Positions 2,687-10,001 of a stretch of DNA of 64,000 nucleotides are shown here, in pieces (the first letter of the stretch is position 1; the number at the start of each line of letters is the position of its first letter). The notes beneath the pieces are model-generated. The model saw only the letters and a program-made list of their open reading frames with translations. It was not told the origin of the DNA and searched no databases. Source of the stretch: an uncultured Clostridia bacterium (GTDB lineage: Bacteria; Bacillota; Clostridia; UBA1212; UBA1255); contig CANQOI010000002.1 of the NCBI GenBank assembly GCA_947625435.1, positions 1,043-65,042 on the forward strand. Direction: 5' to 3'. Both the position numbers and the translations under genes were made by a program.

Positions 2687-2977
2687 TTATATGTTTCTTC
2701 TTTTGTATTTTGCATTAGAATAATCCGTTAGCTTTTCCATTCGTTCCTTCAGCGCGTGTATATTTTCAGATGCGAACAAGGCGATCGACACCTTTAATGT
2801 GTTCAATCGGCGGATATATTCCGTCAATTCATTTTTATACTCGTCGTCTACTCCGGCCAACATTTTTTTCAGGTCAGATTCAAATCTTGCGGCGGTAATG
2901 GAAAATTGTTCGGAAAAATCATTTAAAATGCCGCCTGCCGTATTCAAAGAATCCGTTGTGACGTGTATTTTGTCCAT
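2687..2977 (-). CDS. 96-aa all-helical protein; candidate immunity/partner or WXG100-like protein, last gene of the operon
   Basis: Lies 15 nt downstream of the 427-aa gene. Helical heptad-rich sequence with no TM segment. Confidence 0.4.
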   Translation of the reverse strand: MDKIHVTTDSLNTAGGILNDFSEQFSITAARFESDLKKMLAGVDDEYKNELTEYIRRLNTLKVSIALFASENIHALKERMEKLTDYSNAKYKRRNI

Positions 2978-2992
2978 AAATTATCTTCCCCC

Positions 2993-4276
2993 TTATGTAT
3001 TTGATAACCGTGCCATCATTTCGGAAAAGCATCGATAACTTTCTCCGAAATTGGACTTTACAGCATCCAAAAAATCGGCATCATTCGCTGCATAAGCCTG
3101 AAAGCACTGAGCAAAGAACCGGGAACTCGGGCTGAAAGAAGCCGTTGGAAAATTTGGACGATTTTGAATCTTTCCACCTTTTAATTCTGCAGAAAAACCA
3201 TTTGCGATTTTTTGAATGTTTTTGTCTGCAGATTGTAAATTTCTTGCAATTTCTTTGCCCAACACTTTATCCATGTAAAGTTTATCCTCGGACTGATCCA
3301 ACGCATACAGCCTTCGACCGATGTGAAGCAAAATCTGCCGATCAAAATCAGGATCAGCCGGGTTTAATCCGATAATTTTCAACGTCCTTCCACTTGCGTC
3401 TTTTTGGTAGCCAAACCCGAAATATGCGTTCAGCAATATGATATTGCCCATTTTTTCCATGATGGCGTCACGAAAATCTACATGCAGACCCCGCATGGCG
3501 TGATATAATGCCTCTCTTACCTGTGGGGCATATGGGTTATAGATTCTGTACGCCATGCGTTTCCCGGATTTAAAATCAAAAGTTCCCGATTTTAACCGAT
3601 ATGTTTTTTGCTTGAACTGTGCGTTCGCAGAAGCACGGAAAACAGAAGAATAAGAAACAAAATCAGAGTTTTCATCCGCTGCAAAGGCCGAATCTGCCAT
3701 GTAAAAATCGATTGATGAAAGATAATTTTGCAGACAGGTCAAGACAGAGACTAACGATTGGTTGTTATATGTGATTTCCTCTGCCAAACCGGAGTTTAAT
3801 TTTTTGACTTCTGCGGCGTTTTTCTCTAGAACGTCTATCATCGCAGATAATGCCTTTTGTAATTGCTCGAATTTTTGCTTTTTTTGTTTGATTTCTTTTT
3901 GTAGTTCAACGGATGACTGATAGGACTCAGTCAAGACATCGTACATTTGCCGTGCTTCTTCCATTTTTCTCAAGCAGGCGGATGCGACATCACGGCTATC
4001 TGCGTTATTATACTGCTCGGAATAATACGCCCGTCCAGAGACCGTTTCATCTATGTTGTATTTGATCGACCATGATTTTTTCTGCAAAGATTCATCAAGT
4101 TCAGCAAGCTGAATCATTTGTGTTTCAAGCTTTTCTTTTGCGTCTTCTACAAAGCCTATCATCTCATTGATGTTTGACAATACAGCTTTTGATACAACTA
4201 TCATTTGATTGTATTGATTTTCAGTTTCTTTTGTAAAAGACATAACATAAGAAACTACAGTTGACAGTTCACTCAT
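2993..4276 (-). CDS. 427-aa protein with a ~200-aa helical N-terminal region and a ~220-aa globular C-terminal domain; candidate polymorphic-toxin/LXG-like effector
   Basis: Domain architecture and position (after four small helical proteins, before a small ORF) mimic LXG toxin cassettes. No recognisable catalytic motif. Start overlaps the upstream gene by 8 nt. Confidence 0.4.
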   Translation of the reverse strand: MSELSTVVSYVMSFTKETENQYNQMIVVSKAVLSNINEMIGFVEDAKEKLETQMIQLAELDESLQKKSWSIKYNIDETVSGRAYYSEQYNNADSRDVASACLRKMEEARQMYDVLTESYQSSVELQKEIKQKKQKFEQLQKALSAMIDVLEKNAAEVKKLNSGLAEEITYNNQSLVSVLTCLQNYLSSIDFYMADSAFAADENSDFVSYSSVFRASANAQFKQKTYRLKSGTFDFKSGKRMAYRIYNPYAPQVREALYHAMRGLHVDFRDAIMEKMGNIILLNAYFGFGYQKDASGRTLKIIGLNPADPDFDRQILLHIGRRLYALDQSEDKLYMDKVLGKEIARNLQSADKNIQKIANGFSAELKGGKIQNRPNFPTASFSPSSRFFAQCFQAYAANDADFLDAVKSNFGESYRCFSEMMARLSNT

Positions 4277-4550
4277 CCCGCACCTGCTCGATTCGCATGC
4301 CTAGCACGGCGATTTCCCTGTCGGTTTCCTCGGCATTATAGTTCTTTTTCACCGCCTCTAAACCTCCATGTGAATCCGCCATCATAGCCCATATTTTTTC
4401 AGCGTATATTTTTATGTTTTCATTGAGCTCTGTAAAACTGGCGGACGTAGGATCTGTCCATACCGTTCTCACCTGTTTCAAAGCCCGATCCAGTGCAATA
4501 ATCTGATTACTGAATTCTCCGTATTGTCCATTCATCATGTATTTCCTCAA
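4269..4550 (-). CDS. small helical protein (93 aa), WXG100/Lap-like
   Basis: ~90-aa predicted helical hairpin. Translationally coupled (ATGA overlap) to the neighbouring genes. Confidence 0.45.
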   Translation of the reverse strand: MRKYMMNGQYGEFSNQIIALDRALKQVRTVWTDPTSASFTELNENIKIYAEKIWAMMADSHGGLEAVKKNYNAEETDREIAVLGMRIEQVRDE

Positions 4551-4837
4551 AGCGACAGTTTTGTTCGTGAGCGGATCATTTCTGCCTGTTTTTTGAAATA
4601 TTGCGGATACTTGAACCGTATTGTTTCCATAATTCGGTCGACGGAATTGGTGAGGACTCGAATTTCCTGTAAAATTTTCCCCATCGTTTCATCGTCGCGC
4701 CACTCTAACGAAAGAGTATTCATCTTTTTCATATAGTCATCCATAACGGCTTTTTGTGTGTTGCAATACAAGACAATAAAATCTGCAGTTGTGTCCAGCA
4801 CATGGTCGTCTAAAACCATATTTTCAAACGGATTCAT
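4547..4837 (-). CDS. small helical protein (96 aa), WXG100/Lap-like with a central W-x-D motif
   Basis: LSLEWRDDETMGKILQEI sits where the WXG turn lies in EsxA-like proteins. Confidence 0.45.
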   Translation of the reverse strand: MNPFENMVLDDHVLDTTADFIVLYCNTQKAVMDDYMKKMNTLSLEWRDDETMGKILQEIRVLTNSVDRIMETIRFKYPQYFKKQAEMIRSRTKLSL

Positions 4838-8714: not shown

Positions 8715-8750
8715 GGCAAAAGTCTCCTATTCATGAGGTGATATTCCCGA

Positions 8751-9851
8751 TCAGTGGAAAGCCGATGCAAAAAGTTCAAATTCTTGTTTTAGTTCCTCGT
8801 CGTTATCTATTGCATTTCGCCTCAGATTTGCAACAACGTCAGGCAAGTCTGCGTGTGGATTTTCAGCAATAAAACGTAAAACGGAGTCCAAAAAATTCCG
8901 ACTTAATACTTTGGCTGAAATAATCGATTGGCTAACAGTTTTATAAAATGTAAGCTTTTCATTTTCCAGCTCTTCTGTTGCTGTTACGGTATTTTCTTCG
9001 GATCTTTGAATCAAGACTGTTCTTGATTGCCCTCCATTGGACGGACCTATAACGCCCTTTTCCTCCAACAAATCCACTAGTCGAGAGGCTCGTGAATACC
9101 CAATTCTCATATTCTTTTGCAGCAAGAAAGCGGATGCCATGCCTGCTTCCGTTACAATTTGAACCGCTTGTGAAAACATGGGATCTTCGTTGTCATCTTC
9201 TAATTCAAAGGAAAATAATTCGCTTGCCATTTTAGTGTTTTTCGCTTCTTTGAAAGGAAAATTTGCCGTCATATTCGGCCATACGACGATTTGATATTCA
9301 GAAGCAAACGTTCTGTTGCGAATCAAGTAGAAAAAATCATACGACTTTTGGCATGCAAAGCGAAGAACATCACTAAAATCGACGAATTCCGAAAGCTTTT
9401 GCATTTCTCTGTAACCGCAAGCCCATAAGAGTCCGAATAAATTCAAGTAATGATCTGTCGAATATTTGTGCGCTTCGTTATTGTCAGAATCGGGAGATAA
9501 ATTGACCCTGATTAGTTTTTCGTTCAGCTCCTTTACTCTTCCATCGCCTTCTTCTCCGACAAAATACAGTTGAAAATATCTCCCGAATTTTCGATAAAGC
9601 AAACAACACGCTTCTATGTATTGCCTTACAGGTTCATCGAGGGACGGATTTATTCTTAAAAACTGCACATCAATTTCTTCCGGTACACCAAATTGCCGAG
9701 CCAGACTTGCTCGGCGTTCTTTCAAATTTTGCAAGCATCCATTATAATCGTTGTTAACCTCTTCCAGCCTGGTTTCAAACCGTTCCAGATTTTTGATGTA
9801 TGTTCTGATTTCGCTCTCTAATTGCTCAGTCCAATCTACGCTCATCTTCAA
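8751..9851 (-). CDS. 366-aa protein with an FtsK gamma (winged-helix, KOPS-type DNA-binding) domain in its C-terminal half; N-terminal coiled-coil/unknown
   Basis: DPMFSQAVQIVTEAGMASAFLLQKNMRIGYSRASRLVDLLEEKGVIGPSNGGQSRTVLI aligns closely with the E. coli FtsK gamma segment DPLFDQAVQFVTE...RIGYNRAARIIEQMEAQGIVS. RBS gaggtg. Confidence 0.75.
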   Translation of the reverse strand: MKMSVDWTEQLESEIRTYIKNLERFETRLEEVNNDYNGCLQNLKERRASLARQFGVPEEIDVQFLRINPSLDEPVRQYIEACCLLYRKFGRYFQLYFVGEEGDGRVKELNEKLIRVNLSPDSDNNEAHKYSTDHYLNLFGLLWACGYREMQKLSEFVDFSDVLRFACQKSYDFFYLIRNRTFASEYQIVVWPNMTANFPFKEAKNTKMASELFSFELEDDNEDPMFSQAVQIVTEAGMASAFLLQKNMRIGYSRASRLVDLLEEKGVIGPSNGGQSRTVLIQRSEENTVTATEELENEKLTFYKTVSQSIISAKVLSRNFLDSVLRFIAENPHADLPDVVANLRRNAIDNDEELKQEFELFASAFH

Positions 9852-9985
9852 TCACCTCGAAACAAATCCCACTGTTTTTATTATATCATGTTTACGGCGA
9901 GCAATCAATTATCGCATGCGTTTGAATACCGCAGTATATAAATATGATCAAAATACACTTGCACTTTTATTGTACACATATGTTT

Positions 9986-10001
9986 GTACCGAATTCGGTA
10001 C
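9986..10001. promoter_or_regulatory. 16-bp perfect palindrome gtaccgaattcggtac in the promoter region of the minus-strand operon; candidate operator
   Basis: Exact dyad symmetry, ~135 bp upstream of the first gene. A TACAAT -10-like hexamer lies just downstream on the minus strand. Confidence 0.3.

Follow-up and report, generated by a model that had tools for sequence, protein, structure and literature searches.

What does a soluble relative of the type VII secretion motor do in an operon of small helical proteins, downstream of a protein that carries the DNA-binding gamma domain of FtsK? The question is raised by eight intact open reading frames (ORFs), all on the minus strand at positions 2687-9851 of a 64,000-nt stretch of contig CANQOI010000002.1 from an uncultured Clostridia bacterium (assembly GCA_947625435.1, positions 1,043 to 65,042); “the window” means the whole of this stretch. 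An earlier reading of the letters without database searches (the sequence-only reading) had described the eight genes as one tightly packed unit, half secretion-type cassette and half DNA-binding motor, and had offered two interpretations: a DNA-sensing defence module, or a cytosolic stage of a type VII-like route whose channel is encoded elsewhere. The eight ORFs are present as described, each preceded by a Shine-Dalgarno-like motif; they are separated by 11-15 nt or overlap by 4-8 nt, and the one departure from the claimed packing is a 36-nt gap between the gamma gene and the ATPase gene. None of the eight products has a hydrophobic segment. The cassette is a barely studied toxin-delivery or anti-phage module, and not a wholly new invention; which of the two functions it has is the subject of most of what follows.

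The identification begins with the motor. Type VII secretion is defined by a membrane-embedded motor of the EssC/EccC type, and the largest cassette product, a protein of 1095 amino acids (aa) encoded at 5427..8714 (minus strand), is a soluble EssC/EccC-like ATPase according to Pfam, NCBIfam, AF2 and Foldseek. Its parts are a coiled coil (aa 2-163), a degenerate domain 1 (177-470), an active domain 2 (478-752) and a degenerate domain 3 (790-1095). Pfam finds a single FtsK_SpoIIIE domain (aa 500-693, E=1.6e-29), and the best curated-family matches in NCBIfam are EccCa and EssC, both well under their cut-offs. The sole Walker A motif (GGTGSGKS, 509-516) and the Walker B motif (DE, 620-621) both lie in domain 2, and the equivalent positions of domains 1 and 3 are degenerate; judging from these motifs, the middle domain is predicted to be the only one able to hydrolyse ATP. 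In an AF2 model built on 26 family members (mean pLDDT 82), N-terminal helices at 2-79, 99-141 and 143-163 precede three alpha/beta domains. Foldseek places first against this model the three-ATPase cytoplasmic domain of EccC (4nh0, E=5e-28, 1042 aligned columns), followed by EssC (4lya, 5fv0) and EccC (4n1a) over domains 2-3, with FtsK reaching only 1e-12; EccC and YukB are also the best matches when the ATPase profile is compared with solved structures.

Could this simply be an EssC that has lost its membrane anchor? The sequence-only reading had described an ATPase with intact Walker A and B motifs and with neither transmembrane (TM) segments nor an FHA domain, and this description holds: the motifs are there, no hydrophobic segment is found, and Pfam gives no FHA match in any cassette protein. 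A search of 5.8 billion proteins returned 74 clusters (90% identity) at E<=1e-256, and identity to the window protein is 45-74% for those of full length; nearly all the clusters are unnamed, come from metagenomes or metagenome-assembled genomes, and have lengths of about 1190-1270 aa. Beyond these there is a steep drop in score, to a 908-aa protein (2.8e-31) and to EccCa proteins (about 1e-29). Because N-terminal TM segments are missing from all 74 close homologues, in a scan in which the EccC matches were positive, and because their lengths are similar, truncation of an EssC is ruled out, and the motor is a truly soluble one. The family, with its roughly 74 clusters, is common enough in metagenomes of gut Clostridia to be of ecological relevance there. 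Some members are N-terminally fused to LRR_5 (P0023) or Sel1 repeats (P0026), without a signal peptide. A search of IMG/VR, as a test of phage origin, gave no relative; an unverified “Bacteriophage sp.” contig from human faeces (L025, MT836827.1) encodes at 2037-6308 a distant homologue of 1423 aa, 26% identical over the three domains, with ORFs of 82-96 aa on its flanks.

Relatives on metagenome contigs were retrieved using a sub-alignment of a family-specific stretch of the ATPase, and the related loci examined comprise 18 distinct cassettes. Directly 3' of the ATPase gene, the window has four small genes, a longer one and a fifth small gene, in the order s1-s2-s3-s4-carrier-s5. The same gene order is found in every related locus that reaches far enough downstream, these loci coming from different samples, and its recurrence is far beyond chance. 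Of the full set of eight, the order from the ATPase to s5 is conserved, and the gamma gene is present in few cassettes.

What are the small proteins? From their profiles, s1, s2, s3 and s5 are predicted hairpins of the WXG100 superfamily, and s4 appears unrelated to them. The family profile of s1 (93 aa, 5130..5411, minus strand, as are all the cassette genes that follow), a WXG100-family hairpin with an invariant central W45-x-D47, matches end to end H. pylori HP0062 (2.4e-5), S. aureus EsxA (1.4e-3), B. anthracis EsxB and other WXG100 structures. That of s2 (89 aa, 4849..5118), also a WXG100-family hairpin, with no tryptophan at the turn, matches end to end the ESAT-6-like protein 12fa (3.9e-4), EsxA (5.5e-3) and HP0062 (0.02). 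The WXG100-like hairpin s3 (96 aa, 4547..4837; invariant W46-x-D48) has weak end-to-end PDB matches to SAG1039, gbs1074 and EsxB, and the WXG100-like paralogue s5 (96 aa, 2687..2977), encoded directly 3' of the carrier gene, a weak end-to-end match to HP0062. Taken as single sequences, the small proteins give Pfam WXG100 matches that are under the cut-off; iterated hidden Markov models (HMMs) join s1, s2, s3 and s5 in one superfamily, together with a Caballeronia plasmid gene annotated “WXG100 family type VII secretion target”. The fourth protein, s4 (93 aa, 4269..4550; probably 88 aa from an ATG at 4535, judged by its homologues), is a small helical protein of a separate family that has 11 members in related loci, always just 5' of the carrier gene; its Pfam WXG100 match is weak (E=0.0027, under the cut-off), and the PDB profile search gives no match. 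The W-x-D of s1 and s3 sits exactly at the W-x-G position of WXG100 proteins. Where the sequence-only reading had seen W-x-D turns in two of these proteins, the motif is invariant in three families (s1, s3 and s4), and where it had called the set WXG100/Lap-like, the first half of the label fits s1, s2, s3 and s5, no Lap family is matched in Pfam, and s4 stands apart.

The same reading had taken the last ORF of the cassette, s5, for an immunity protein. This is ruled out: besides its place in the WXG100-like superfamily, s5 directly follows the carrier gene in nine other loci (L001, L006, L010, L015, L016, L017, L019, L021 and L022), whatever the C-terminus of the carrier, or with none, and it therefore cannot be a cognate immunity protein.

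The carrier itself (427 aa, 2993..4276) consists of a two-helix hairpin of about 190 aa (NTD200), a serine-rich linker and a C-terminal domain, CTD-A. The AF2 model has helices at 2-91 and 95-187 with pLDDT of about 90; in the C-terminal half pLDDT is below 50, so no fold is called for CTD-A. Foldseek with the whole model returned only generic long-hairpin matches. An NTD200 family member is encoded 3' of s4 in 11 of 13 loci of one survey, and five further loci have the same layout. NTD200 is joined to CTD-A in L001, L006, L019, L021, L022 and P0087-P0097 and to an ADPrib_exo_Tox domain in L007_461 and L015_527, and it stands without a C-terminal domain in L010_233, L016_197, L017_203 and L002_219; an s3-type WXG-like domain forms the N-terminus of other ADPrib_exo_Tox proteins (L002_353, L010_404) and of a TIR_2 protein (L018_447). 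The ADP-ribosyltransferase (ART) domains of these relatives retain the R / S-T-S / E-x-E motifs, and small ORFs overlap or adjoin their toxin genes. At the level of the family, these NTD200 and s3-type fusions follow what is, by its domain logic, the architecture of polymorphic toxins. The LXG-toxin-like layout proposed for the 427-aa protein survives in this sense, as a helical-hairpin N-domain with interchangeable C-termini across the family, and not as a match to the LXG family in Pfam. Two further candidates were tried and rejected. CTD-A as an ADP-ribosyltransferase, an idea prompted by the ADP-ribosylglycohydrolase (ARH) and DUF3990 neighbours described below, reached an hhalign probability of 0.2% against the family's own ART domains; and a YxxxD export motif at the tip of the carrier hairpin is present in the CTD-A subgroup and is not kept across the family.

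Is such a combination of a membrane-less motor and WXG100-like partners new? The sequence-only reading had held that no described type VII secretion system (T7SS) has such a motor half and that either of its interpretations would be new. This was an overstatement. Under the name “mobile versions of T7SS”, Zhang et al. (2012) noted membrane-less EssC-like ATPases in which only the middle one of three domains is active and which have WXG100 genes as neighbours (PMC3482391, Table 1 note 6). Bell et al. (2024) described, in CoCoNuT/TerY-P islands, TM-less EssC-like ATPases with N-terminal coiled coils whose neighbours are a pair of WXG100 genes and a fusion of coiled coil and nuclease, and considered that their mechanism must differ from EssC secretion (PMC11090510, citing Anantharaman et al., 2012). 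The HP0062/HP0066 pair of H. pylori belongs to the same class (PMC4978471), and no functional study of this pair was found in the literature. The membrane-less class is already known, solely from comparative genomics.

The Clostridial cassette shares a good deal with this class: an ATPase without TM segments or FHA domain, with an N-terminal coiled coil and three FtsK/HerA-type domains, the central one alone being active; neighbouring WXG100 genes, one carrying the tryptophan motif and one lacking it; a coiled-coil protein fused to an effector domain, here the hairpin carrier with its C-terminal domain; a mobile context; and, for the H. pylori members, a best match of the s1 profile to HP0062. 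In a pairwise comparison with plasmids by tblastn, the two top-ranked matches by query coverage were a Caballeronia WXG100/FtsK/TerY-P locus (1e-34) and a stand-alone Deinococcus cassette, with EccC at about 1e-19. The Deinococcus plasmid cassette has the order ATPase-88-94-326-144 aa, and hhalign gives 99.8% over domains 1-2. There are also differences. Identity to the described membrane-less examples is about 26-29%, over two of the three domains only, and the present family is found in Clostridia, a lineage absent from the list of Zhang et al. Where the described loci have one or two small proteins, there are five here in a fixed order; where they have a nuclease of the restriction-endonuclease fold, ART, TIR or CTD-A domains are attached here to a dedicated hairpin carrier; and there is a dedicated membrane-anchored partner, to which one subclade adds the gamma protein and a retron. 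What appears to be undescribed is this Clostridial family, with its fixed small-protein set, hairpin carrier, ART/TIR payloads, membrane partner, and gamma protein and retron.

Among the canonical systems, T7SSb (EssC, EsxA, LXG, Lap) and the newer subtypes T7SSc-j share with the cassette the EccC/EssC motor fold, WXG100 hairpins, a long helical N-domain with swappable toxins, several small helical partner genes 5' of the toxin gene, and payloads of ART and NADase type. In every described T7SS subtype, a to j, the ATPase is membrane-bound and is not accompanied by a second, soluble one (Garrett et al., 2024; PMC11217815), whereas the cassette ATPase lacks TM helices and an FHA domain, and W-x-D takes the place of W-x-G. 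No Pfam or NCBIfam match to YukD/EsaB, EssA, EssB, EsaA or EccB/D/E was found in the eight proteins, their neighbours, ten large membrane ORFs of the window, or the annotated related loci.

How, then, would anything reach the membrane? Relatives encode, in one or more genes 3' of s5, a membrane partner that starts with a conserved cytosolic module of some 65 aa (the N-module), continues with a long, charged helical linker and between one and six TM helices, and has LRR_5, PDZ, PEGA or DUF6273 as its outer domain. The N-module HMM finds 16 ORFs in 12 of the 13 surveyed loci with enough downstream sequence, and in all of those loci except L006, whose ORF has no TM helix, the N-module protein carries TM helices and an outer domain. 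The statement of the sequence-only reading that no membrane gene accompanies the cassette is therefore true of the window copy, in which the HMM finds no N-module in any frame, and not of the system. The window cassette ends instead against a truncated group II intron fragment (D1-D4, 2373-2553, plus strand; Rfam RF02001, 46.8 bits, full model length), without an intron ORF or 3' domains. Because it lies exactly where relatives encode the membrane partner, this fragment may mark a rearrangement that truncated the cassette. BspA-type LRR_5 proteins also recur beside cassettes (L002, L015-L019, L022, L027), where they supply the outer domain of the membrane partner, and the end of one such gene lies at window positions 4-360 (plus strand).

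One possibility, tentatively favoured here although with a little less than even confidence, is that the family is a type VII-derived toxin export module handling helical-bundle effector complexes. This is based on the homology to a secretion machine, the polymorphic-toxin architecture, the outer-facing domains of the membrane partner, and the presence of immunity-type genes (SUFU in L001, L026 and L029; ARH in the window and L003). By analogy with LXG-Lap-EsxA complexes, the small hairpins would bundle along the carrier hairpin; the degenerate C-terminal ATPase domain could dock the bundle, as EccC domain 3 docks EsxB; and the central domain, by the same analogy, would power transfer of the bundle towards the membrane. 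In relatives, the charged linker of the membrane partner may pair with the ATPase coiled coil to make up a “split” EssC membrane domain, and the payloads there are ADP-ribosyltransferase or TIR toxins. The gamma protein might bind the N-terminus of the ATPase and add DNA-dependent control or localisation. The window copy may rely on factors encoded elsewhere, or be decaying. If this is how the family works, it could serve as a split, minimal model of the type VII machine: a soluble motor, five small proteins, a carrier, ART/TIR payloads and a separate membrane partner. Alternatively, it could show a type VII motor re-used inside the cell as a toxin-release device.

Several observations weigh against export. 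CTD-A is conserved rather than variable, has no dedicated downstream gene, and matches no toxin in Pfam or, by sequence, in the PDB; neither the LXG domain (PF04740) nor Lap1/Lap2 (DUF3130/DUF3958) is matched at Pfam E<=1 in the carrier, six aligned homologues, or the small proteins. In the window, the N-module HMM returns nothing at E<=10 in any frame, and the largest membrane ORFs elsewhere are housekeeping genes, with no T7SS component among ten large ones; the dockerin, YfhO and PBP context is in keeping with a Clostridia host. The literature contains no demonstration of secretion for any membrane-less EssC-like ATPase, and no experiment on any member of the class. The nearest relatives outside the family are in TerY-P/CoCoNuT defence operons, and these, the LRR and Sel1 fusions without a signal peptide, and operons that open with a retron directly 5' of the gamma gene fit intracellular sensing better than secretion.

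The last of these points concerns the gamma protein. In FtsK, the gamma domain is a winged helix, C-terminal on a DNA pump, that recognises KOPS (FtsK orienting polar sequences) and also activates XerD. In the cassette it is on a separate protein of 366 aa, read from a TTG (8751..9851), with an N-domain of about 200 aa of no assigned family, the winged helix at aa 221-281, and a C-terminal tail; judged by homologues, the gene probably starts at an ATG at 9845, giving 364 aa. The winged helix anticipated by the sequence-only reading is bona fide: Pfam assigns FtsK_gamma at aa 221-281 (E=6e-22), and the 62-residue domain aligns end to end, the recognition-helix region included, with the solved gamma domains of P. 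aeruginosa and E. coli FtsK (2j5o/2ve8, E about 1e-10). The N-domain, considered as a possible duplicate of the ATPase coiled coil, shows no similarity to it. Unlike in FtsK/SpoIIIE, where motor and gamma domain share one membrane-anchored polypeptide, gamma is encoded 5' of, or is N-terminally fused to, a soluble three-domain ATPase of the protein-translocase type.

Is the gamma protein a fixed part of the machine? Full-length relatives fall into only two clusters at 50% identity among 1.84 billion representatives, the other roughly 12,000 matches being to the gamma domain alone. It occurs in 6 of the 18 distinct cassettes: as a separate gene in the window, L001, L026 and L029 and fused in L006, in a count that keeps L013, which is cut before that position. 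Other family members have WYL, HTH or DnaA-like genes 5' of the ATPase. The gamma protein is a rare accessory and not a core part of the system. In P0058/L006, gamma and ATPase form one ORF, with gamma at the N-terminus of the ATPase, the alignment being collinear over aa 10-283 and covering the N-terminal 284 aa of P0058, and it is because of this fusion that the gamma protein is taken to be physically tied to the ATPase. The proposed gamma-ATPase unit therefore stands as regards the tie and falls as regards core status.

Three of the closest relatives examined (L001, L026 and L029), those with sequence available upstream, have a retron directly 5' of the gamma gene, the order being operator-promoter, ncRNA (non-coding RNA), RT (reverse transcriptase), gamma, then the ATPase and the rest, and the protein genes lying some 30-95 nt apart. 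The retron (ncRNA plus RT) spans about 700-1985 in L026, 1735-3009 in L001 and 5490-6762 in L029. Its RT, of 355-363 aa, matches the PADLOC models RT_Ec107-like (4.7e-114) and RT_III-A (2.8e-93). In its ncRNA, about 190 nt long, the a1/a2 stem measures some 27 bp and includes four compensatory pairs; msr hairpins and a long hairpin for the msd are also present. Since the left flanks differ among the three loci, the island begins at the retron. Identity among the three is 80-89% for the RT, 67-97% for gamma and 62-77% for the ATPase; given this level of ATPase identity, they are versions of one element and count as roughly one observation. The window has no RT at E<=1 (tblastn).

What it does share with these loci is the regulatory element. 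Upstream of its gamma gene, an operator-like palindrome, GTACCGAATTCGGTAC, and a promoter occupy 9969..10003 (minus strand), the palindrome (9986-10001) at -35 and a TACAAT -10 box at 9969-9974. This element aligns with the promoter/operator 5' of the retron ncRNA in L001, L026 and L029, in which the palindrome, also at -35, reads ATG[C/T]ACCnnATTnGG[T/G]ACA. Another consensus promoter-like site lies 5' of the gamma gene at 9908-9880. Candidates for a protein that binds the operator are an HTH (helix-turn-helix) protein encoded at 11314-11625 and the gamma protein.

These loci give substance to the second possibility, that the cassette is a DNA- or retron-coupled abortive-infection effector: gamma would bind multicopy single-stranded DNA (msDNA) or invading DNA and restrain the ATPase, until, on perturbation by a phage, the ATPase stripped the WXG-like chaperones from the carrier or toxin and freed an intracellular toxin. 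On this reading the window copy would be a version without the retron, perhaps an orphaned one, and LRR or Sel1 repeats would serve as sensors in other members. The retron-gamma-ATPase order, the RT assignment and the ncRNA structure speak for it, as do the start of the island at the retron, the same operator/-10 element 5' of the window gamma gene, the gamma-ATPase fusion in P0058, the TerY-P/CoCoNuT operons in which relatives of the ATPase lie, the effectors of TIR and ART type, the genes for an SNF2-like helicase and an AAA protein 3' of the cassettes in L001 and L029, and the fact that no export has been demonstrated for the class. Type III retrons consist of RT and a phosphoribosyltransferase (PRTase), with or without a winged-helix auxiliary protein; winged-helix accessory proteins are used by many retron types, and no effector is known for the Ec107 branch (Mestre et al., 2020; PMC7736814). 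The likeness to type III/Ec107 retrons is that an Ec107-like/III-A-like RT and a canonical ncRNA directly precede a winged-helix (gamma) protein in the three relatives; the differences are that there is no PRTase, that the window lacks RT and ncRNA, and that a multi-gene effector of EssC-like ATPase, WXG100 proteins and toxin is unlike that of any retron type. A literature search found no paper linking retrons with FtsK/EssC-type ATPases.

Set against this, most family members have neither retron nor gamma protein, the three retron loci amount to roughly one observation, and the retron may merely neighbour a toxin locus within a conflict island. Interbacterial export is the better fit for the outer-facing membrane partner, for loci that carry several toxins, and for the genes of immunity type (SUFU, ARH and the small ORFs that follow toxins). 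PADLOC-DB 2.0 gives no system-level match: the ATPase meets only generic models (SspH, mad8, HerA), gamma none, and the small proteins none apart from a marginal one for s2 (E=0.014). The defence alternative of the sequence-only reading has thus gained unexpected support, from the retrons of three of the closest relatives examined, and no support as a known defence system. As an account of the family, abortive infection is a serious contender, with perhaps one chance in three. The more specific proposal, that the gamma protein is an msDNA- or DNA-binding adaptor coupling the retron to the type VII-derived ATPase, so that the motor would release toxin from WXG100-like chaperones when a phage perturbs the msDNA/DNA signal, is rather doubtful; under this proposal, the window copy would have lost the retron or never gained it. 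Were the adaptor proposal true, this would be a new type of retron or abortive-infection system whose effector is a soluble EssC-like motor, not a single enzyme; and a functional link between retron and FtsK gamma would provide an effector for the effector-less Ec107-like branch and join the fields of secretion and retron immunity.

A separate question, independent of what the family does and not to be added to the likelihoods of the other readings, is whether the window copy works at all. It may be decaying, since the membrane partner, the retron and a segment of the ATPase have been lost. Compared with its closest relatives it lacks the retron, the membrane-partner genes, and the SUFU and helicase tail; its ATPase is short of about 94 aa, in frame, after residue 110, a segment kept in at least 70% of homologues (consensus DFDxLVPPVK...DPKP...). 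The cassette ends at the truncated intron fragment, and a neighbouring DUF3990 ORF is broken relative to its profile. The loss of the 94 aa from the ATPase coincides with that of the membrane-partner gene in the window copy. Yet the eight ORFs are intact and have ribosome-binding sites, catalytic motifs and family-invariant residues are retained in the ATPase, the promoter/operator is conserved, and a protein identical to the 427-aa carrier is encoded on another metagenome contig (P0086). A non-working remnant is, on balance, an improbable description of this copy, though not a negligible one.

The other interpretation offered by the sequence-only reading fares much worse. A cytosolic targeting stage, in which effectors are pre-assembled and handed to the membrane-bound EssC of a canonical T7SS encoded elsewhere, would be in keeping with the EssC/EccC-like fold, the WXG100-like partners and the missing membrane component of the window cassette. 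But essB, esaA and yukD-type genes are present in none of the 18 distinct related loci (by Pfam annotation), the family has a membrane partner of its own, and T7SS a-j have no soluble second ATPase (PMC11217815), which leaves this reading very improbable. Least probable is that the cassette serves a mobile element as its DNA translocase or conjugation module (FtsK/TraB/TcpA type, with gamma loading onto DNA): there is a bona fide FtsK gamma homologue and a mobile-island context (Mob_Pre, integrase, Tn7-like genes and resolvase near relatives), but the ATPase is far nearer to EccC/EssC than to FtsK/TcpA in sequence and fold, with two degenerate extra domains like those of EccC, most members lack the gamma domain, and what is conserved alongside the ATPase is a set of WXG100 proteins and toxins rather than parts of a relaxosome.

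The setting of the cassette in the window is that of an acquired island, as indicated by its G+C content: the cassette region has 41.6%, the remainder of the window about 49%, and the adjoining ARH gene 57%. This gene (1048..2223, plus strand; 391 aa, Pfam ADP_ribosyl_GH 1.5e-38) is a possible associate of the cassette. ARH proteins can serve as immunity against ART toxins, and a 267-aa ARH homologue (1e-64) lies beside the ATPase in L003-L005. In the window, however, the G+C content of 57% argues that ARH is not part of the island, and no ART domain is detected in the carrier despite this neighbour. At its C-terminus the window ARH is extended by about 160 aa. The operator/-10 element seen 5' of the gamma gene occurs a second time 5' of ARH (770-804). 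Both copies belong to a repeated non-coding element of about 190 nt (770-963 and 9984-10200, both plus strand; 62-nt core 77% identical), which holds the operator-like palindrome and -10 box and brackets ARH and the cassette, one copy being 5' of ARH and the other between the gamma gene and DUF3791. A long perfect hairpin at 2240-2293 (18-bp stem by terminator scan, 25-nt arms by repeat finder), situated between ARH and the intron fragment, is probably a bidirectional terminator.

Just 5' of the cassette, on the same strand and within the low-G+C island, are a DUF3791 ORF (10261-10485, minus strand) and a DUF3990 ORF (10748-11092, minus strand), the latter matching its profile only in two broken stretches. 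DUF3990 belongs to the ADP-ribosyltransferase clan of Pfam and is a known C-terminus of Rhs toxins; the two ORFs may be a toxin/antidote pair or the remnant of one.

Other surroundings recur among relatives. In L003 (about 2450-7070) and L004 (about 640-4860), the cassette, with ARH and an HTH gene, lies directly 3' of Tn7-like TnsB/TniB/TniQ genes and 5' of a resolvase, and this placement suggests that it travels there as transposon cargo; Mob_Pre and integrase genes are also near relatives. Recurrent genes 5' of the ATPase in L019, L021, L022 and L027 code for WYL proteins of 570-720 aa and for a soluble AAA-Peptidase_M41 protein, together with fragments of DNA polymerase III alpha (PHP, finger) and a DnaA-ATPase-like protein of 161 aa. 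A gene of the SUFU family, which has been described as polymorphic-toxin immunity, is present in all three retron-bearing loci. In two of them (L001 12636-17120; L029 16355-21560) it is followed, 3' of the cassette, by genes for an SNF2-like helicase, some 1200 aa long, and for an AAA (AAA_5-like) protein, a set that looks like a further conflict-system module.

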